Shown piece after piece: positions 4,291 to 54,536 of a stretch of 64,000 bases of DNA (positions are counted from its first letter, which is position 1; every line of letters begins with the position of its first letter). The DNA lies in NCBI GenBank assembly GCA_024137785.1, contig JAHRHZ010000144.1:19650317-19714316 (forward strand). Direction: 5' to 3'. The notes beneath the pieces are model-generated. The model saw nothing but the letters and a program-made list of their open reading frames with translations, was not told the origin of the DNA and did not search any database. The translations under genes and the position numbers were made by a program. This DNA is from Ginglymostoma cirratum. Its lineage: Eukaryota.

Positions 4291-4856
4291 TGCCTATGAA
4301 AAATGTGCAAAATGACAATTCCACTTCTTTGCAAAAACAAAAACTAGCATGCAGAATTGATCCTTATTTATTAGGCTACTTTGAATTTCAGCCTAGGCAG
4401 AGAAGCGAATTCTGAAGATTGTTTAAAACTGTAAGCTGGTATTACTCATTGACTTGTAAAGTAATTAAGGCAACATTCATACGAAGAAACGCTTTGGAAT
4501 ACTATAATTGAAAGACCCAATAGATTTTAAATCTGCAAAATTAAATAGAATTCCCAGAGCAGCCTGAATCCAGGTAATTAACTGATAGAAATCAGTTCCA
4601 AAACCATTGAGTTTGTGAATATAGCTGAGGGATCGTTGTATCTCAAAAGACCTGAAGTTTGCAATGTCACAAAGAAAAGATAAGAATCGCAAAGACAAAG
4701 TTTTTATTGGGACAAATGTTTCTGTGGTATCCTTTAGGTTTGAAAATACCAATTCATGTTTGGGACAGTGTTAAGCAATATGAAAATTAAATGTGTGACA
4801 ACTTGTGTTGGGGTTGTGAGGCATCCAAAAAAGTCAGCAACTCAAATATGTTCCAT

Positions 4857-5088
4857 AAAAACTGAAAGAACTGCGGATGCTGTGAATCAGGAACAAAAAC
4901 ACAGTTGCTGGTAAAGCCCAATGGGTCTGGCAGCATCTGTGAAGGAAAAAACAGAGTTAACATTTCGGGTCCAGCAACCCTTCCTCAGAACTGAGGAAGG
5001 GTCGCCGGACCCCAAACGCTAACTCTGTTTTTTCCCTTCACAGATGCTGCCAGACCAGCTGGGCTTTTCCAGCAACTGTGTTTTTGTT
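4857..5088. mobile_element. Palindromic Penelope-derived mini-element (two head-to-head terminal repeats)
   Basis: ~95-bp inverted arms centred near 4990; exact 14-bp TSD caaatatgttccat at 4843-4856 and 5089-5102. Confidence 0.9.
4955..4992 (-). ncRNA. Minimal type I hammerhead ribozyme motif (PLE type)
   Basis: Minus strand AGUU-CUGAGGA-A-GGGUU-GCUG-GACCC-GAAAUGUU-AACU: stem I, core boxes and stem II present; one CpG-type change in ACGU. Confidence 0.7.
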
Positions 5089-5509
5089 CAAATATGTTCC
5101 ATTTGATCAAAAATGATGTGAACTGGACTCACGATCCGTTGTATTTGCAGTGTTGTTTGCTTTCACATTTAACAGGATATGTACCTGTTGACACAAAAGT
5201 AAAATTACCTTCAGTAACATAAGAATTGGACGTGGATAACCTGGATTTAAAAGACTTTTATTCCAGCTCCTGGTATCTACATATTACACTGTCACATCTG
5301 GACTAGTACCGAGCAATTCGGTTACGGGCCGTTATACATTATTTTCTCAGCATGTCATGCTGCAAGTGACCCCAGCAAGATGGAGACTAAGACCTTTATA
5401 TCATCAGATCACGTGTTGCACAGTGGTGATAACATGAGCCTGTCTCTCCAAAGTATATTGCATTGCCAACTGTGAGACATAGTGCAATAAAACGTGGTTC
5501 TACTTATTT

Positions 5510-15900: not shown

Positions 15901-16517
15901 CTTTGTCCTTCACTGTACAAAGTGATTATCCAATCATCTTCAAGGTTAAAAATTTTATGTCAGATATCAAATCGCCTACCCTCTTTCATGTGATACAAAA
16001 ACAGAAATTGCTGGAAAGTTTCAGCAGGTCTGGCAACATCTCTGGAGACAAGTCAGAGTTAACATTTTGGATTCAGTGACCCTTCTTCAGAACTTGTGGT
16101 AGCTGAGAAAAGTTGTTTTTTATGTAGAAGATAGAAGGGGGGATGAGGTAAGGAGTAAACAACAGGTGGAGTTAGAGCACAAAGAGAGAGAAGAACAGTT
16201 GAACAGACAAAGGAATGAATAACAATTGGTCTGGAAGTATGGATAGCTACTAATGGAGACAATGGCTAAAGATGGCTGGTGTGTATTAGCAGCCCATGTG
16301 ATAACATGCCCTGGTGTGTCGGGATTGGGGTAAGGACATGGGAGGAGGTCCAAATACTAATTGGAACAAGGGCCAGGTGGATATCATTGACTTTCAAATC
16401 CTCAATTTGAGTTGTCAGCTGGGGCTCCCTGATTGATCCAGTTTAACAACCCCAATCAAGGATCTCACAGTCAATGATATTCACCTGGCACTCATTCCAA
16501 TCACTACAGTCCACCAG

Positions 16518-16806
16518 ACACATAGAACATAGAACAAAGAACATTACAGTGCAGTACAGGCCCTTTGGCCCTCAATGTTGTGCCGACCTGTGAAACCAAT
16601 CTGAAGCCCATCTAACCTACACTATTCCATTATCATCCATATGTTTATCCAATGACCATTTAAATGCCCTTAAAGTTGGCGAGTCTACTACTGTTGCAGG
16701 CAGGGCATTTCACATCCTTACTACTCTCTGAGTAAAGAACCTACCTCTGACGTCTGTCCTATATCTACCACCCCTCAATTTAAAGCTATGTCTCCTCGTG
16801 CTAGCC
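16518..16806 (-). mobile_element. CR1 3' end (young subfamily)
   Basis: catagaacatagaac tail; TRRHSFKLRGGRYRTDVRGRFFTQRVV. Confidence 0.88.
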
Positions 16807-17273
16807 ATAGAAAGCATCCTAACTAGATATGGCAATTGCTCTGCCCGAGACCACAAGAAGCCACAGAGAGTTGTGAACACAGCCCAGTCCATCATAAAAA
16901 CCAGCCTTCCTTCCACTGAATCTACCTACACTTCCCACTGCCTCAGAAAAGCAACCACATCATCGAAGACCCTTCCCACTCCAGTTATACTCTCTTCCAC
17001 CCTCTTCCATTGAACAGAGGACACAAACTTTTGAAAACACATACCAACAGATTCAGGAACAGCTTCTTCTCCGCTGTTATCAGACTTATGAAGGGACCTT
17101 TCATATATTAGTGTTGATCTTTCTCTGCACCTTCTCTGTAGCTGTAATATTATATTATGCATTCTGTTCTATTACTTTGATCTACATACATAAAGTATAA
17201 ATTATCTGGATAGTACACAAAACAATATACAATGTATCTCAGTACTTACTTCAATACTAAATCAAATCAAATC
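16807..17273 (+). mobile_element. Rex1/Babar LINE 3' fragment
   Basis: IESILT..YGNCSARDHKK.QRVVNTAQSII...THTNRFRNSFF.AVIRLM; (aaatc)n tail. Confidence 0.85.
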
Positions 17274-17274
17274 A

Positions 17275-19200
17275 TTTTTGTCTTAAATGGGCAACCTTTA
17301 ATCTGAGTGTATGTCGTCTGGCCCTAGTCTCTCCCAGAAGGGGAGACAACCTTTTGAGCATGTCAAACTCCCAGAGAATCTTATATGCTTCGTAAGGTGT
17401 CCTCTCATTCCTTAAAACTTCAATGAATACGGTCGAACATACTCAATGACTTCTCCTAAGAAAATGTGGACTGGGCTCTCTGGACTGTCTCAATATCAGT
17501 ATATTTTTCTTTTGATAAGGGAATCAAAACTGTTCACAGTATCCTAGGTGAAGCCTAAATGGTGCCGTGCATAGCTTTTGGAGAAGTTCTATATTTCTGT
17601 ACTTCACCCTCTTTGAAATAAATGCCAATAGTCTATTTGCCTTCCTTATGACTGCTGAACTTGGATGCTAGCTCTTTTGTGATTCATGCACAAGGAACTC
17701 CTTCTGTCCTGCAATTTTCTGCAGTCTATCTCCATTTAAACAATATTCAGCGCTTCTATTCTTCTTGCCAAATATTACATTATGTTACATCTGACAAGGT
17801 TTTGTCCATTCACTTCCTATCAATATTCTTCTGTAGACTCTCTAGCATCCTCACTACTTGCTTTACACTTATTATTACATATCTGCAAACCTGGCAATAG
17901 TACATTCATCTCCCTTATCTAAGTCACTAGTATTTATTATAAATAATTGTGACCCCAGCACTGATCCCTGTGGCACACCATTAGCTCCAGGTGCCATCCT
18001 GAAAACTCCCCCTTTTCCCAACTATGTCTTCTATTAACAAGCCAGTCTTCAATGCATGCTAATACAGTGTCCCCATCACCATGGGCTCTTATTAAGTAGC
18101 CCTATGTGCAGTACCTTATCAAATATCTTTTGAAGATCTAAATTTATTACATGTTCTGGTTCCCTTTTATCTATTCTGCATGTTAATCCCTCAAAGAACT
18201 TCTAATCAATTTAACAAATGATTTCCTCTTCACATAAACACCTCATGGCTTTTTGATTATCATGTATTCCTAAATGCTCTGCTATTCCTTCATAATACAG
18301 TCTAATATTTTCTCAATGACAGATGTTAAGCTAACTGATCTCTGGTTACCTGATATTTGTGTCCCTTCCTCTTTTAAGAAGGGTGTTACATTGTAGTAAT
18401 GTCTTAGGGGATTGGAAAACTGCCAATCTAAGGATTCTTGGAAGATTCCTACCAGTGAATCCACTATCTAAGTAACTATTACTTTGAATATCCTAGGATG
18501 CCAAACATCAGGTCTTGGGGACTTATCAGCCTTTAGATCTATTAGTTCCCCAGTACCTTTCTCTCTAGAGGTAATTATTGCTTTCATTTCCTTCCAACTT
18601 TTGCTCCTTCATTATATAATATTTTTGGAATACTATCAGTGTGCTCTACTGTGAAGACTGATGCAAAGTATTTATTTGATTCCTCTGTCATTTCCTGGTT
18701 CCCCATAATTCCTTCCACAGCCTCATTCTTTAGGATGCCAATGTTCACGTTAGCCTCTCTCTCCCTTTCTATATACTTAAAGATGCTCTTACTGTCGGTA
18801 TCTTCATTATTTGCGAGTTTACCCTAAAAGTTTATTTTCTCCTTTTTTTGGTCATCTTTGTTGGCTTTTACAACTTTCCCAATAATCTTGTTTGTCACAA
18901 ATCTTTGCCACATAGTTTAAAGCTGAAAGGAATAAAAACAATCCTTAACATCTTTGGTTAACCATGGTTGGTTTACTGCCTTCTGAGAATCCATTTTCCA
19001 CACTGGGATACATCTTTGTTGTGAGTCACAAACTCTTTTCTTAAACATCTGACATTGTTCCTCAACAATCTTTGCTGTTAAACTCCTTCCCTGTGCAGCC
19101 AGCCAAGTCTGCCTTCATCCCTATGTAAGTATCCTTATTTAAGTTTAGCACAGTTGTTTTCAAGCTAAGTTTCTCACTCTCAACATGAATGCTAAACTTA
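17275..19200 (-). mobile_element. Old CR1 ORF2 fragment
   Basis: IFQESLD...NVTPFLK...GNQRSVSLTSVIEKILD; VPQGSVLG-type motif near 17950. Confidence 0.85.
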
Positions 19201-20839
19201 TACAGGCATACAAGTAGTAGGGATATAGTAAAAAAAAGTTCCTCTGAGAAAAATGCTAGCTAAAGTGGAAGCTCTTGGAATTACATTTATTCCTCTCCCC
19301 TCCCCTGTCAGCCTTCCACAAGGACTATGCCTTCCGGGACACCCTGGTCCTTTCCTTCACTCCCAACATCAACTCCACCTACCACCCCCCTCCCCACGGC
19401 CCCACAGCTCTTTCCCCAGCAACTGCAGAAGATGTAGCACCTGCCCATTCACTTCCTTTCTCCTCAGATTCCAAGGGCCTAAATACACCTTCCAGTTGAA
19501 GCAGCGCTTCACCTGCACTTCACACAATCTAGTCTACAGCATTCGCTAATCACAATGTGGTCTCCTTAACACTGGGGAAACAAAGTGTAGACTGGGTGAC
19601 CGCTTCACAGAACACCTACCTCCTGTCTGCAAAAAAGACCCTGAGCTTCCAGCTGCCTGCCACTTCAACACACCATCGTGTTCCCCGGCCAACATCTTTG
19701 GCTTCTGGACTTAATAGTGAGTTCAACAATTTTAAGGCTTCAGGCACCTTTCCCCATGTCCTTACCCCAATCTCCACACACCAGACCTTGTTATTACATG
19801 GTCTACTATTACCCACCAGCTATCATTAGCCACTAATTGTCCCCATTGGTAGCCATTCATTCTCCCAGGCTGGTTGTTAGTCACTCCTTTGTCTGTCGAA
19901 TTGTTCTTCTCTCTCTTTGGACTCTATCTCCATCTATCCTTTACTCCTTACCTCCTCCCCCCTTCTATCTTCTGCATAAAAACCAATATTTTCCTAGCTA
20001 CTATCAGTTCTGAGGAAGGGTCACTGAAACTTTAACTCTGATTTCTGTCCACAGATACTGCTAGACCCGCTAACCTTTATCAACAAGTGTTTTTGTTTCT
20101 GATTTCCAGCATCCGCATTGCTTTCGGTTTCTCTTTCATGAGATATTGAGCTGTGACTTTTTTGTGTTGTTTCAGCACAATCTGTCTGCTCCCACTACTC
20201 CTTTAGGCCGAACCAGACCAGGTGCAGTCCAGTTCCTGCTGTGACTGCTGCTGCATAAGTCTTTCCATTAATATCCCATCCAGTTCTCCCTTTTCACCCA
20301 CTTTCACTGTTGCAGCTGCTTCAGGGCCTTGGATAACCTCTCTTTAAATTACAAAATAATCAGATAGCGTTCCAGAGGTTACGACTGGTTAGGTACTACT
20401 CTTACACTCTTGAGAGTCGCATTTCGTCCTACCTTGACTGAAAGTATCATTTCTGTCTACTAACTGCAGTCATTCTACAGGATGTAAGCGTGAACTTAAA
20501 ACCAGGTCCCCATCGGCATCTTATCGCTACACAAAATTATCCTTAATTTGTCACTAATGGTCAATATCGCTCAAGTATGCCTGCTGTATGATAAATAGAG
20601 CAATGAAACAACAAAAGATATTCCCTTTTGATTGGGACTAAAGAAAGATCTACACAGTATCTAGAATCATGAGAGAGTCTCTGAGCGAGAACCATAAATT
20701 CAAGGGAGCTTGAAGGCAGAGCCCAAACCTGGAGGGAAGTCAAGTAATTTTTAAAACAAATGTTGATTTCAGCACAAGATTGTGAGTTATTTTGTCTTAA
20801 CTCTTTAATAACCCTTGATTTAATGTTAATTCAGTTTGA

Positions 20840-25715: not shown

Positions 25716-25789
25716 TTTCGGTTAGCTTAGCTGGTTGGAGTGTGGTGCTAATAATGCTAAGGTCATGGGTTCAATCCCCATACTGACCA
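25716..25789 (+). pseudogene. tRNA-Ile(AAT) pseudogene
   Basis: Colinear over 74 nt with vertebrate tRNA-Ile-AAT (cggttagc.tag.tggtt.gag.gtggtgct-aat-aa.gc.aaggtc..gggttc.atcccc.tac...cca); many differences are CpG transitions; acceptor stem broken. Confidence 0.82.
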
Positions 25790-33321: not shown

Positions 33322-33512
33322 AAGCATGGGGCTGGATGAACACAGCAGGTCAAGCAGCATCATAGGAGCAGGAAAACTTGACGTAAACGGGTTTAGGCCC
33401 GAAACGTCAAGTTTTCCTGCTCCTATGATGCTGCTTGACCTGCTGTGTTCATCCAGCCCCACACCTTGTTATCTCGGATTCTCCAGCATCTGCAGTACCT
33501 TTTATCTCTTAT
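33322..33512. mobile_element. Palindromic Penelope-derived mini-element (family B)
   Basis: Perfect ~58-bp inverted arms; exact 16-bp TSD cattgaactttataac (33306-33321, 33513-33528); gggtttaggcccgaaacgtc hammerhead half. Confidence 0.9.
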
Positions 33513-35334: not shown

Positions 35335-35549
35335 GGAGACAGTGGAGACAGTAAGGACAGCAGATGCTGGAAGCTAGAGTCAATAAATGTAAAGCTGGAA
35401 AAGCACAGCAGGTCAGACAGCATCCGAGGAGCAGGGAAGTCAGCATTTTAGGCTGAAACCCTTCTCCAGGACTGCTTTGGCCTGAAACATTAACTTCCCT
35501 GCTCCTTGGATGCTGTCTGACCTGCTGTGCTTTTCCAGCTTCACATTTA
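35335..35549. mobile_element. Palindromic Penelope-derived mini-element (family B)
   Basis: Inverted arms (aagctggaaaagcacagcaggtcagacagcatcc and its reverse complement); exact 14-bp TSD ttaactactatcta (35321-35334, 35550-35563). Confidence 0.88.
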
Positions 35550-37584: not shown

Positions 37585-37700
37585 CAAAAACCGAAAGACT
37601 GGGTTCTGAGGAAGGATCACCAGACCCAAAACGTTAACTCTATTTTGTTCTTCACAGATGCTGCCAGCCCTGCTGAGTTCTTCCAGCAACTTTGTTTTTG
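37585..37700 (+). mobile_element. Penelope terminal repeat insertion with hammerhead motif
   Basis: gttctgaggaaggatcaccagacccaaaacgttaactc; flanked by tcaccagggtgga / tcaccagattgga (imperfect TSD). Confidence 0.8.
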
Positions 37701-37997
37701 TCACCAGATTGGATAGTATGTGTGTATTTCAGGCGGTCAGCCTAGATTGGGGAAAGGCAACTTGATTTGTATAATTTTTTTTGACTTGTGAGTGTTTCAA
37801 TAAAACTAAGTCTGAACTGCAGCACTTTATTTGTCTCATACAGTAACAGCACATAGGTAAACATGTTTTATGAGTAATAAACTGGTCAGAGTGTCTGTAT
37901 AGAATATTTCACAGGCAACGTGGGTTTAATAAAATGCATACTTATTACTTAAACTACCATTGCAGCTAGAACTTCAATCCTGAATACTGACTCCATT

Positions 37998-42149: not shown

Positions 42150-42291
42150 CCGTGATGTGGAGATGCTGGTGTTGGACGGGGGTGGACAGTCTGAAGTCAC
42201 ACAACACCAGGTTATAGTCCAACAGGTTTATTTGAAATCACAAGGCTTCGGAGCACAGCCCCTTCATCAGGTGAAGTCACATGGCTTGGTG
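42150..42291 (-). mobile_element. Penelope terminal repeat insertion (same family as 50381-52915) with hammerhead motif
   Basis: Minus strand UCAC-CUGAUGA-A-GGGGC-UGU-GCUCC-GAAGCCUU-GUGA; TSD cattggtta (42141-42149, 42292-42300). Confidence 0.82.
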
Positions 42292-44036: not shown

Positions 44037-44074
44037 TTAAATCACATCAGCGGAGAATGAGCTAAGAACTGATT

Positions 44075-44658
44075 CAGAGATAGTAGGAACTGCAGATGCT
44101 GGAGAATCTGAGGTAACAAGGTGTAGAGCTGGATGAACACAAAGCAGGCCAAGCAGCATCAGAGGAGCAGGAAGGCTGACGTTTCGGGCCTAGACCCTTC
44201 TTCTTCTGAANNNNNNNNNNNNNNNNNNNNNNNNNNNNNNNNNNNNNNNNNNNNNNNNNNNNNNNNNNNNNNNNNNNNNNNNNNNNNNNNNNNNNNNNNN
44301 NNNNNNNNNNNNNNNNNNNNNNNNNNNNNNNNNNNNNNNNNNNNNNNNNNNNNNNNNNNNNNNNNNNNNNNNNNNNNNNNNNNNNNNNNNNNNNNNNNNN
44401 NNNNNNNNNNNNNNNNNNNNNNNNNNNNNNNNNNNNNNNNNNNNNNNNNNNNNNNNNNNNNNNNNNNNNNNNNNNNNNNNNNNNNNNNNNNNNNNNNNNN
44501 NNNNNNNNNNNNNNNNNNNNNNNNNNNNNNNNNNNNNNNNNNNNNNNNNNNNNNNNNNNNNNNNNNNNNNNNNNNNNNNNNNNNNNNNNNNNNNNNNNNN
44601 NNNNNNNNNNCCTCTGATGCTGCTTGGCCTGCTGTGTTCATCCAGCTCTACATCTTGC
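44075..44658. mobile_element. Palindromic Penelope-derived mini-element (family B) spanning an assembly gap
   Basis: Left arm and inverted right arm flank the N run; flanks gagctaagaactgatt / gagctcagaattgaat (13/16 match). Confidence 0.78.
44211..44610. other. Assembly gap (400 N)
   Basis: Run of n. Confidence 1.
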
Positions 44659-50305: not shown

Positions 50306-52174
50306 ATTAAAGCTTAACTATTCAAATGTTCTGTTCTTTACCTTAGTGAAAATATACCTGGAATAAACAACTACTGACTGCCATGATGTGGAAGTGCTGG
50401 TGTTGGACTGGGGTGGACAAGGGCAGAAATCACATGACAGCAGGTTATAGTCCGGCAGGTTTATTTGCAAACACAAGCATTTGGAGGAGCAATCTATCTT
50501 CAGGTGTTGGTCAGAGAGGTAGTATTAGAAACAGAATTTATAAGTAAAAGATCAAATGCTCACACCATTGATGAGGATGTACTAAACAAACCTAAGATGC
50601 TGTTAAATCTTTAATCAGTTAGAAGATTTTAATTGATTAATACGTATATGTAATTCCTCAAATTCCTTTCAAGTCACAGTCCTAGGAGAACTGAAGTTTT
50701 TATCAGTGTAAAGAAGAGCTGATATTTTAGGTCAGGCAACGCATGTTAGGTGTGATACCTTGTTTAGAATCTGTTTGTATTTTAGTTTGGAGTCAGACTG
50801 ATTTTATTTCTGAAGTATTTTTTGAAATTTATAAAATGCCATGTTAACTGACTGTCTATAAATTGTGTGCTTTATGAACAGCCTCGGTGCTCAATACCAC
50901 CAACTGCCAGTTTCCAGGCGCCATCCTACAACTCATCCGTTTCATCCTCGACCACAGCATCTTCATCTTCAACAACCAGCTCTTCATCCTGACACTGAGA
51001 TCAGCCATGGGGACCAAAATTTCTCCCCATATGCCAACATTTTCATATACTGGTTTGAACGAGACTTCTTTGCTGCACGGAGTCTCCATCCAACGCTATA
51101 CACCAGATACATTGAAGACATTTTCTTCCAATGGACTCATGGTGAAGAATCACTGAGACACCGACATAGCAATATCAAAAAGTTTCATCCCACAATCAGA
51201 CTTACTAAGAATCAGTCTCATTCTTGGACACACATATCTCCACCAGGGACAGACACCTCAGTACCTCACTCTACCTACGGATAACTTCATGATGCTGCAC
51301 TTAGGCTTCCACCCTAAATATATTAAAACAGCCATCCCCTACGGACAAGCCCTATGCATACGCAGAATCTGTTTGGATGAGGAGGAATGAGATGGATACC
51401 TGAAGGCATTGAAGGATGCCCTCATAGCAACAGGACACGACACTCAACTCATTGATCGCCAGTTCCAAAGTGCCACAGCGAAAAACCGAAATGACCTCCT
51501 CAGAAGACAAACACGGGATACATCCGATAGGGTACCCTTCATCATCCAGTATTTCACAGGAGCAGAGAAACTACTCCATGTTCTTCACAGCCATCAACGC
51601 ATTGTCGATAATGATGAGCACCTCGCCAAAATCTTTCCCACGCCTCCACTTGTCACTTTCAAATAACCGTCAAACCTTAAACAGACCATTGTTCACAGCA
51701 AACTACCCAGCCATCAGGACAACATCGATCCCAACACTATACAACCCTGTCATGGTAACCTCTACAAGAAACGTTTGATCTTCAACACAGATGCTACCAT
51801 CACACGTGGGAACACCACCCATCACGTACACAGCAGATACTTGGCCAACGTTGTCCATCTCATACGCTGCAGGCAAGGATGTCCCGAGGCATGATATATT
51901 GGCAAAACTTGCAGACGCTACAACAATGGATGAATGGACACCATGCAACAATCACCAGACAGCAATGTTCCCTCCCAGTGGGGGAGCACCTCAACGGTCA
52001 AAGATATTCAGCCTTGGATCTTCAAGTAAACGTTCTCCAAGGCATACTTTGGGATACACTACAACGCAGAGTCGCTGAACAGAAGCTGATAGCCAAGTTC
52101 TGTACCTGTGAGGACGGTCTCAACTGGGATCTTGGATTCATGTCGCACTACAGTGACCCCACCACACTATACAT

Positions 52175-52381
52175 TCTCACACTCACACACACTCACACAC
52201 ACATGTGCATTCTCTCTTTCCCCCCTTCCACTCACACACACACGCGCTCTCTCTCTCTCCCGTTCCACTCANNNNNNNNNNCTCTCTCTCTCCCGTTCCA
52301 CTCAGACACACACGCGCTCTCTCTCTCCCCCCTTGCACTCTCACACATTCTCTCTCCTGCGCCCCCTTAATCGCTCTCTCT

Positions 52382-52427
<46 letters not shown>

Positions 52428-52428
52428 A
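52175..52428. repeat. (CA)n/(CT)n microsatellite complex in the Penelope 3' UTR, includes a 10-N gap
   Basis: Seen directly. Confidence 0.9.
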
Positions 52429-52835
52429 ATCCATGGGGTGAATTTGTATTAACAGACACATTTTATGTTGTTCAAAAAGCACACAATTTATAGTCAGTCA
52501 GTCAATATGGCATTTAATAAAATTCCTACTGTACAAATACAACCAGTCTGACTCCAAACTAAAATACAAACAGATTTTAAACAAGGTCTCACGCCTAACA
52601 TGCATTGTCTGACCTATAATGTCACCTCTTCTTTACACTGATAAAACCTTTCGTTCCCTCATGACCATGACTTGAAAGGAATTCGGGGATTTACATGTAC
52701 ATAGTAATCAACTAAAATCTTCTAACTGATTAAAGATTTAACAGCATCTTAGGTTTGTTTGGTACATCCTCATCAACGGTGTGAACCTTTGATCTTTTAC
52801 TTATAAATTCTGTGTCTGATGCCATCTCTCTCACT

Positions 52836-52874
52836 AACACCTGAAGAAGGACTGAGGCTCCGAAAGTTTGTGTT
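52836..52874 (+). ncRNA. Minimal hammerhead ribozyme motif in Penelope terminal repeat
   Basis: AACAC-CUGAAGA-A-GGAC-UGAG-GCUCC-GAAAGUUU-GUGUU; 5-bp stem I, slightly damaged stems II and III. Confidence 0.68.
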
Positions 52875-54536
52875 TTCAAATAAACCCGTTGGACTGTAAC
52901 CTGGTGTCGTGCATGTACTGACTGAATTGAGCTGTGTGGTGGGGAAGGCGGTCTCAAGATGTCCTTTCTGCAGGACATGATTGAACAGGACATTCCCTGA
53001 TGAACATTAGAACATGTTCAACAGAATCTGTTGCTATTGTCTGTGAATATCTCTTTTTAATAGAATGGTTGCGACAGTCTTTATATGTTAAGGTTGCTAT
53101 CTAATTTATATTTTAATAATTACACAAGGCTTTTCTAAAATGCTGACATGGGATGAAATGTAGACTGACACCATTTAACATCCTTATGCAGCAGTAATTT
53201 AATATGATGTGACACATGGCTGTTTAGTACTGCAGAGGTGTGGAATCTCATTTGTGGAATAGAAATTAAGCAATTCACAGCAGTACACCATTACAATTTA
53301 GAATAGACTTAGTTCACCTCGTCTGAAAACATTTATGTAAAACTTGAGATTGGAAGGTTTTATTTTGAGGTTATTCTCCTCTTCCTTGTGATTTAATTTT
53401 CAGAAAAAAATTGACAAATAAAATACTGCAGATGCTGTAAATCTGAAACAGAAGCAGAAAGCTTAGGAAATAGTCAGTAGTTCTGGCAGCATCCATGTAG
53501 AGAATAACAAAATTGAAGGAAACTGGAGAAATAAAGACTGTCATCTGACCAGTTCTGAAATCGGTCCTTTAGTTAATAAAGTTCAACAGTGGAAGAGAGA
53601 GAGAGTAAGACTGGGCATGAGAGTGAGTGAGTATGTGTGAGTGAGCAAGTGTGTGCATGCATGTGAGAGTTTGTGAATGTGTGTGTGGAGGGGCGGCAGG
53701 GTAGGGGACACAGTAGTCAGTAGAGGGAAGGTTGTTTTATGAGGAAGAAGGTGCAAGATACATCTGTGAGAATACAGATGAGAGATACAATGAGAACAGA
53801 ATCTGTGATGACTGTAGGCAAATAGTCCAAGAGAAATGTCAGGAAGCTGAAGTTTTATAAACAGTTAGCATTGGTCTCTTTCATTTAAAGTAGACAGCGT
53901 TGGAGTGGGTTTGGGGGAGGTAAGATGATAGCTAATTAATATTTTTACAAGGATACAATGTCCATGGATTCATGTTGCCACTGGGGGAAGTAGTCCATTG
54001 GACTCCACTGTAGACACAGAGTGCAGAATTTCCTGCAACATCCCTGAATCTCATAGACAAGTTATTGTGCAAGGATCTTTGTATGTGAGAGAGAAAGCCG
54101 CGAGAGAGAGACAGTGTCTATTATTCTTCACACAGAATACGAATGGCAACTCGTGCTCAGATTGAAGAGGCCAGGTTTATGAAGGTTTAATTGAGGTTGG
54201 AAGATTTACCTAGCTCTGGCTAGAGGGAGTGATCTCTAGGATAAACCTTGCAATGAAAATTAACTCTCAGCTTAGAAATTATCTGCCATGACAAAGAAGG
54301 AAAGAAAGCCAGTGGAAGATGAGAATAACTTTGGATTAATTCCTGGAGAGTGAAGTGTCCAGTTGAGAGACAGTGAAAAGTATAACTACTGAGCGAGATT
54401 GTTGGTTGTTTTCTAAATTTAATGATGTCTTTGTCTGTCGTTTAAGTATATAGGTTGCCTACTAAATAATGCTTAGACAATGTTGATTTCAATTTGTTTA
54501 TTACAGTAAATGTACTAAAACTTTAAATCTTGTCAA

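Follow-up and report, generated by a model that had tools for sequence, protein, structure and literature searches.

Results

The DNA analyzed here is a 64-kb window (64,000 nucleotides) from the shark Ginglymostoma cirratum, and all coordinates are positions within it. At the focal locus, an insert of 231-232 bp lies between the two copies of an exact target-site duplication (TSD) of 15 bp, one base pair longer than the 14 bp given by the first-pass annotation; its score of 14 was reached by none of 2000 random flank pairs. That annotation had also described a 232-bp palindromic unit. The length stands, but self-BLAST shows that only the 198 bp from 4891 to 5088 are palindromic, and the remaining 34-36 nt have no partner and form a one-sided tail, making the insert asymmetric (Table 1). 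As originally described, two CUGAGGA cores face away from a 2-nt center (4989-4990) within a long hairpin, which folds with a minimum free energy of −161 kcal/mol (z = −19), a stability matched by none of 200 shuffles. The two arms agree at 87 of 97 aligned columns, and the 10 differences between them, together with the TSD, rule out an assembly artefact as the source of the palindrome. The locus itself is non-coding, and no coding sequence separates its arms. If transcribed, it is predicted by folding to yield a double-stranded RNA (dsRNA) hairpin of about 98 bp and would be a plausible target of A-to-I editing, as described for lizard Penelope repeats (PMC5625713).

The arms meet head to head at a 10-nt mini-palindrome, a microhomology that is common to both and is also present in the untruncated arm at 20004-20013. 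The tailed arm aligns to nucleotides 754-882 of the 886-nt reference 19250-20135, and nothing matches further upstream. The alignments identify the focal unit as the last 135 and 97 nt of the terminal repeat of a Penelope-like element (PLE).

Table 1. Coordinates of the focal unit and of related loci in the 64-kb window
Feature	Position	Strand	Remarks
Left TSD copy, 15 bp	4842..4856	.	exact match to 5088-5102
PLE tail, 34-36-nt 3' extension, tailed arm only	4857..4890	-	homologous to the tail of the endonuclease-bearing arm, about 20096-20130
Tailed arm, 5'-truncated pseudo-LTR copy; starts at helix I first base	4857..4992	-	alignment
Minimal type I hammerhead, sequence-intact	4955..4992	-	sole descriptor match in the window; pair table
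Head-to-head junction at 10-nt imperfect palindrome (4-bp arms, 2 nt between)	4985..4994	.	sequence
Tail-less inverted arm	4991..5087	+	hammerhead remnant 4991-5024
Right TSD copy, 15 bp	5088..5102	.	exact match to left copy
Longest family member in the window	15996..20130	+	15-bp TSD, 1 mismatch
Short two-armed locus, subfamily B	33322..33512	.	16-bp exact TSD; junction within stem II and helix III
Short two-armed locus	35335..35549	.	14-bp exact TSD; tailed arm from helix I, tail-less arm from stem II
Two-armed locus, tailed arm only about 17 nt of tail	37585..37701	.	tail-less partner begins at helix I
Two-armed locus across a 400-N assembly gap (44211-44610)	44073..44658	.	14-bp TSD, 2 mismatches

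The parent element

What kind of element supplied these arms? The longest family member consists, in order, of an inverted tail-less arm on the minus strand (15996-16351), about 2.9 kb of other sequence, an endonuclease, a 3' UTR, a hammerhead and a tail. The decayed GIY-YIG endonuclease (19409-19750) and the hammerhead (20006-20036) belong to the same arm at 20.0 kb, and the translation of 19232-19750 contains a CX2CxxC linker, GIY-YIG motifs and a GLN-like C-terminus. A direct Pfam search with the decayed peptide at 19.4 kb returned nothing meaningful and a word-index search for longer homologues scored none of 25 candidates; since these direct searches were empty, the domain call rests on homologues. 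A full HMMER search with the peptide retrieved 1017 proteins at E ≤ 0.001, and the domain scan took in 11 of the 150 matches listed, eight of them 772-927 aa long. All eight carry a C-terminal GIY-YIG match (above the Pfam cut-off in two) and seven carry an RVT_1 match (above the cut-off in five), and they map back to 19421-19708 of the window. This combination of reverse transcriptase (RT) and GIY-YIG in a single ORF is the layout of endonuclease-bearing (EN+) PLEs. Taken together, the comparisons identify the focal repeat as the 3' end (pseudo-LTR, or pLTR) of a PLE. The CX2CxxC linker points to the Neptune or Nematis clades, which are defined by a CX2-5CxxC linker before the GIY-YIG domain (PMC8557442). 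An RT of the focal family was not found in the 64-kb window by tblastn.

The sequence between 16351 and 19250 (about 2.9 kb) lacks a PLE protein match, and parts of it match repeats at 48.9-50.1 kb that include a LINE-like reading frame; its content is probably nested insertions. Directly inside the inverted arm of the same locus lies an imperfect hairpin (16360-16501) with 56-bp arms and a 30-nt loop.

Related loci in the window

Searches of the window with the focal unit and with 19250-20135 identified 16 arms of the family at 10 loci and no same-strand tandem copies. Six loci are two-armed (at 4.9, 16-20, 33.4, 35.4, 37.6 and 44 kb), and in every one the arms are head to head with a tail on one arm only. 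The tail measures 35-49 nt at four of the other loci (43-49 nt in other subfamilies) and is a 17-nt remnant at 37.6 kb. TSDs of 14-16 bp flank five of the six; the 13-bp duplication at 37.6 kb is weak, with a score of 9 that was reached by 33 of 2000 random pairs. Of the four loci with a single arm (22.0, 31.9, 32.3 and 53.4 kb), none gave a convincing duplication in the same search (scores of 5-9). The matches at 16.0, 20.0, 22.0, 32.3 and 37.6 kb, which the first-pass annotation had compared as copies of the unit, are homologous to it, but none is a further copy of the palindrome: the first two are opposite ends of the single 4.1-kb locus, those at 22.0 and 32.3 kb are single arms, and that at 37.6 kb is a tail-less arm plus the tail remnant. 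At 44 kb the junction appears just ahead of the gap, at the hammerhead core; the missing sequence probably amounts to tens of bases only, and the hairpin likely caused the gap. At the 35.4-kb locus, the tail terminates in a tandemly duplicated 9-nt sequence (35335-35352), possibly the result of RT slippage at initiation.

At 4.9 kb, both arms begin at helix I itself. Counted from its first base, the arms of the other loci start at about +13 and +30 at 33.4 kb, at −1 and +16 at 35.4 kb, at +118 and +2 at 37.6 kb and, tentatively because the ends lie beside the gap, at about +7 and +3 at 44 kb. No two resolved junctions among the six two-armed loci are alike, and insert lengths in this window are likewise diverse (191, 215, 231, about 117 and 4135 bp). 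In all four short palindromes with overlapping arms, each arm has its own locus partner as its reciprocal nearest neighbor, with 90-96% identity within the locus and at most 89% to other loci. Such within-locus pairing, combined with differing junctions, argues for separate insertion events from single templates rather than for the spread of a MITE. The exception is the 16-20-kb locus, whose arms are 74% identical and are not mutual nearest neighbors; that adjacent arms are so much more alike than arms 4 kb apart, compared over the same segment, may reflect age or arm-to-arm gene conversion where the palindrome is tight. Short arms span several subfamilies (53-96% identity), and the long endonuclease-bearing arm is 75% identical to the focal arms, similar to most short arms.

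A second PLE family is present at 50381-52915, with decayed RT and GIY-YIG remnants. A Pfam search with three of its frames returned nothing meaningful. It too is head to head with a tail on one arm: its inverted terminal arm of about 450 bp bears a 48-nt tail, and the tail-less arm is the longer one. A minimal hammerhead (core at 52841) and an exact duplication of 9 bp also belong to this locus, and a solo copy of this family (42200-42283) begins at helix I. Elsewhere in the window, a tRNA-like head (25718-25786; Rfam, 35.5 bits) adjoins an abundant SINE-like repeat, of which there are about eight copies near 0.6, 23.7, 25.9, 37.0, 40.1, 43.8, 46.6 and 54.9 kb.

The hammerhead motifs

The first-pass annotation had described two hammerheads, and one of them is intact. 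The minus-arm motif comprises a 4-bp helix I, the CUGAGGA core, an extra A, a 5-bp stem II, GAAA and no loop 3, and every feature checked is present: core, extra nucleotide, G10.1-C11.1, GAAA, U16.1-H17, helix I and stem II. Its predicted cut lies between 4959 and 4958, after GUU; a C15.2>U change leaves a wobble in the helix III of a dimer. A minimal-hammerhead descriptor matches only this site in the whole window, against a mean of 0.02 matches in 100 shuffled windows, and is passed by one of the 10 arms tabulated (in that pair table, the 22-kb row is off register by one base after stem II). The plus-arm motif, however, carries G12>C (5013) and U16.1>C (5019) and retains only two of four helix I pairs. 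Between subfamilies, and in the second family as well, helix I covaries (AGTT/AACT, AGTC/GACT, ACAC/GTGT, TCAC/GTGA), and the layout equals that of vertebrate rows in Fig. S3 of PMC4209133; for these two reasons, we regard the motif as having originated as a true minimal type I hammerhead, in agreement with the earlier description of a minimal hammerhead with a palindromic helix III. An Rfam scan of the window at E ≤ 1 did not list a hammerhead family; only the tRNA-like SINE head exceeded its gathering threshold. Four sub-threshold Rfam microRNA hairpin matches in the window, one of them on the focal locus, were rejected as generic hairpin matches.

The damage had been attributed largely to CpGs. 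This holds across copies for G12 and 15.2/16.2, where CpG decay accounts for most losses, but only weakly over whole arms, in which minority cells make up 19 of 82 at CpG-touching columns versus 89 of 581 elsewhere (p = 0.08). CpG transitions account for only three of the 10 real differences that separate the two focal arms; an eleventh listed difference is an end gap.

Could either motif cleave in place? In RNA of the whole unit, forcing stem II and an open core costs 36.8 kcal/mol (minus) or 25.0 kcal/mol (plus), and the ribozyme fold has a calculated probability of 1e-18 to 1e-26. Within a focal transcript the antisense arm comes first and a same-sense partner is absent. A single minimal hammerhead motif did not cleave in published experiments, and a same-sense partner was needed (PMC4209133; the single-motif point is also made in the review PMC6765202). 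Because the hairpin outcompetes the ribozyme in these calculations and no same-sense partner is available, self-cleavage at the focal locus is unlikely. The suggestion that transcription from either strand would yield a potential self-cleavage site is thus not borne out: the plus ribozyme is broken at three places, and the minus ribozyme is buried.

Arm 5' ends at helix I

Eight of the 16 arms, from six of the 10 loci, have 5' ends between −2 and +7 of the first base of helix I, while two end further upstream and one, the old 53.4-kb arm, ends near the cleavage site. Under the most favorable geometric null, and after a 15-fold correction for the choice of window, all arms together give a p of 3e-5 and loci one of 2e-4, values to be read with the caveat that the ends were assigned by hand, the 10-nt window was picked after inspection of the data, and all come from one 64-kb window. 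Without the focal locus the counts are six of 14 arms (p 2e-3) or, taking one end per locus, five of nine (p 2e-3); when the gap-truncated 44-kb locus is dropped as well, they are four of 12, with a corrected p of 0.08. The cleavage site was rejected as the source of the common 5' end, since the ends gather roughly 30 nt upstream of that site. An origin from spliced RNA is disfavored: the 22.0- and 32.3-kb arms share no first exon upstream, and the loci at 4.9, 35.4 and 37.6 kb leave no space for one.

The start of helix I in the focal family fits the initiator consensus YYANWYY, and that of the second PLE family does not. By eye, an initiator-like pentamer overlaps or just precedes helix I in 7 of 44 examined rows of Fig. 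S3 of PMC4209133, in U-rich flanks where such a match may arise by chance. In Drosophila virilis, transcription has been placed about 120 nt upstream, and a splice acceptor coincides with helix I (PMC2377424, PMC4209133). Both this and the second family's lack of an initiator match weigh against a transcription start at helix I. For the common arm start we favor run-off of the RT at the RNA 5' end. Somewhat short of even odds, in our estimate, is the fuller proposal that PLE mRNA begins at the first base of helix I, at an initiator-like motif, and that twin priming from both nicks, at the pair of internal start sites in the upstream repeat 100-135 nt from the cap, ends in run-off.

Discussion

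How did this stub arise? The first-pass annotation had weighed an extremely 5'-truncated, inverted PLE insertion against a self-propagating, retrozyme-like MITE. Our analysis supports the former through the tailed and tail-less arms, the TSD and the link to an endonuclease. We propose, with a probability of roughly 85%, that the focal unit comprises a pair of very short PLE terminal-repeat copies, placed head to head in one insertion, likely dead on arrival; the insertion is probably inert. A published signature of PLEs combines a 5'-truncated copy in inverted orientation with a 30-40-bp tail on one end and palindromic junctions (PMC8557442; PMC3846280), and features of this type are listed for curators (PMC8969392).

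The following sequence of events could generate such an insertion. The PLE endonuclease would nick each strand of the target, with about 15 bp between the nicks, and reverse transcription would be primed from each nick, one at each of two neighboring internal start sites in the element RNA; two internal RT start sites have been demonstrated in vitro for the anole element, whose protein cuts and extends both strands and does not require hammerhead cleavage (PMC11167929). The use of different start sites would leave one arm with the 34-36-nt tail and the other without it. Both cDNAs would halt at the 5' edge of the hammerhead, anneal via the element's own 10-nt mini-palindrome and be completed by fill-in, with the hammerhead as a passenger. 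More speculatively, the halt point may be the 5' end of the RNA, transcription starting at the initiator-like motif, in which case priming would take place at the upstream repeat of the mRNA.

Junction palindromes have also been explained as self-priming (PMC3846280), and the closest rival shares the PLE origin: a single cDNA would snap back on the 4-bp mini-palindrome and copy itself, and the endonuclease would resolve the product at the tail boundary, the step to which the tail has been ascribed (PMC8557442). The center of the focal unit is exactly the 4-bp stem and 2-nt loop found in the untruncated element, and fold-back would also make arms nearest neighbors within a locus, as observed. 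It cannot, however, produce two of the loci in the window. The arms at 37.6 kb share no sequence, so neither can have copied the other, and at 50.4-52.9 kb the tail-less arm is longer than the tailed one, which again prevents either arm from being a copy of the other; both loci call for two primings. In addition, both ends of genomic copies map to RT start sites in the anole study (PMC11167929). Fold-back is therefore unlikely, although it could still hold for the focal locus alone. A non-autonomous, SINE-like master RNA of about 135 nt, extending from helix I to the tail and mobilized by the PLE protein, would account for the pile-up of 5' ends and for the many short solo arms, and non-autonomous PLE derivatives with hammerheads have been described (bioRxiv 10.64898/2026.07.22.740005). 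Yet the short arms fall into several subfamilies, the second PLE family has the same boundary, the endonuclease-bearing arm is as near the focal arms as most short arms are, and neither a separate promoter nor a tandem array was found in the window, all of which make a master of this kind improbable, more so than fold-back.

The strong hairpin, the clean TSD, the one intact hammerhead and the presence of four short palindromes in 64 kb would fit a self-propagating palindromic MITE or retrozyme, its two ribozymes excising it from transcripts of either strand. We consider this very improbable in view of the asymmetric ends, the TSDs of 13-16 bp, the unlike junctions and the pairing of arms within loci (4/4). 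The plus ribozyme is broken, each strand's RNA would carry one sense ribozyme although a same-sense partner is needed (PMC4209133), and the ribozyme fold is vanishingly rare in whole-unit RNA. It had been proposed that unique inversion points at every locus would separate truncation by-products from such a family. That test is confounded: the untruncated element already contains the palindrome at the join, and independent insertions are thus predicted often to share a center. Slightly less probable still is a hairpin co-opted by the host and kept under selection as a microRNA precursor or editing substrate. The length of the hairpin, the heavy A-to-I editing of lizard Penelope repeats (PMC5625713) and the greater likeness of adjacent arms than of arms 4 kb apart are in its favor, but the Rfam microRNA match at the focal locus scores 26 bits against a gathering threshold of 44, and the 10 positions at which the arms differ match what is expected of neutral decay.

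Within the PLEs, the preferred reading, a single insertion of two truncated terminal-repeat copies, has close precedents. Published insertions of EN+ PLEs resemble the focal unit in the head-to-head truncated copy, the tail at one end, the TSD and the pLTR hammerhead, and resemble its family in the C-terminal GIY-YIG domain, the CX2-5CxxC linker and the junction palindrome (PMC8557442; PMC3846280). Compared with these, the focal unit is extreme in having no coding sequence at all between its arms, and the TSDs here are 13-16 bp long versus 8-10 bp in the rotifer examples. Like the focal motif, the minimal hammerheads of metazoan PLEs (PMC4209133) have CUGANGA, one additional nucleotide ahead of stem II, G10.1-C11.1 and a helix I of 4 bp, and they are palindromic at 15.2/16.2 and lack loop 3. 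The layout of the minus arm matches the fish and frog PLE hammerheads of Fig. S3, in which the 44 rows examined include no chondrichthyan. The same paper reports thousands of solo motifs as well as dual minimal hammerheads that lie on opposite strands and are spaced by 100-700 bp, whereas only 2 nt separate the focal cores, one of which is broken.

In Poseidon of Anolis carolinensis (PAc), two RT start sites flank the tail and both strands are cut and extended (PMC11167929), and the dispensability of its hammerhead for insertion fits copies that keep an uncut hammerhead. PAc belongs to a different clade, and the focal family has a linker Zn finger; head-to-head junctions and the 5' ends of short copies are not dealt with in the available portion of that account. 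Non-LTR retrozymes (bioRxiv 10.64898/2026.07.22.740005) are, like the focal unit, short, non-coding and related to the pLTR, with a type I hammerhead, but they form tandem arrays whose units run head to tail and each contain a ribozyme. Here the arms are head to head with one intact ribozyme, and head-to-tail units each with a complete hammerhead were not found in the window. Palindromic MITEs such as a frog Harbinger repeat (PMC5625713) likewise measure about 200 bp and fold into dsRNA. The focal unit differs from them in its long TSD and retrotransposon origin and in having neither symmetric termini nor a consensus palindrome shared among copies: instead of terminal inverted repeats at both ends, 34-36 nt extend beyond the palindrome at one end, and uniform length and structure are not seen in this window. 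The focal object is, in short, an ordinary dead PLE insertion with an already published architecture. In the literature available to us, we did not find shark palindromes of this type, or a pile-up of 5' ends at helix I, described; Fig. S2 of PMC11167929, which concerns the ends of genomic copies, may already show the latter.

Finally, such stubs matter for annotation, since they resemble MITEs or microRNA hairpins and can break assemblies, as the 44-kb copy that spans a gap illustrates. They also bear on how PLEs form their inverted ends and tails and on the role of the hammerhead: the copies retain an uncut ribozyme and often start at its first base. If the pile-up at helix I holds genome-wide, it would link internal priming in vitro to genomic products. 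If PLE mRNA does begin at helix I, one active element would yield fixed-length stubs and palindromes with recurring centers that mimic a SINE or MITE family, which would explain why animal genomes harbor minimal hammerheads by the thousand, both solo and back to back. Uncut RNA would then be the template in vivo, and PLEs would be a built-in source of self-folding dsRNA.
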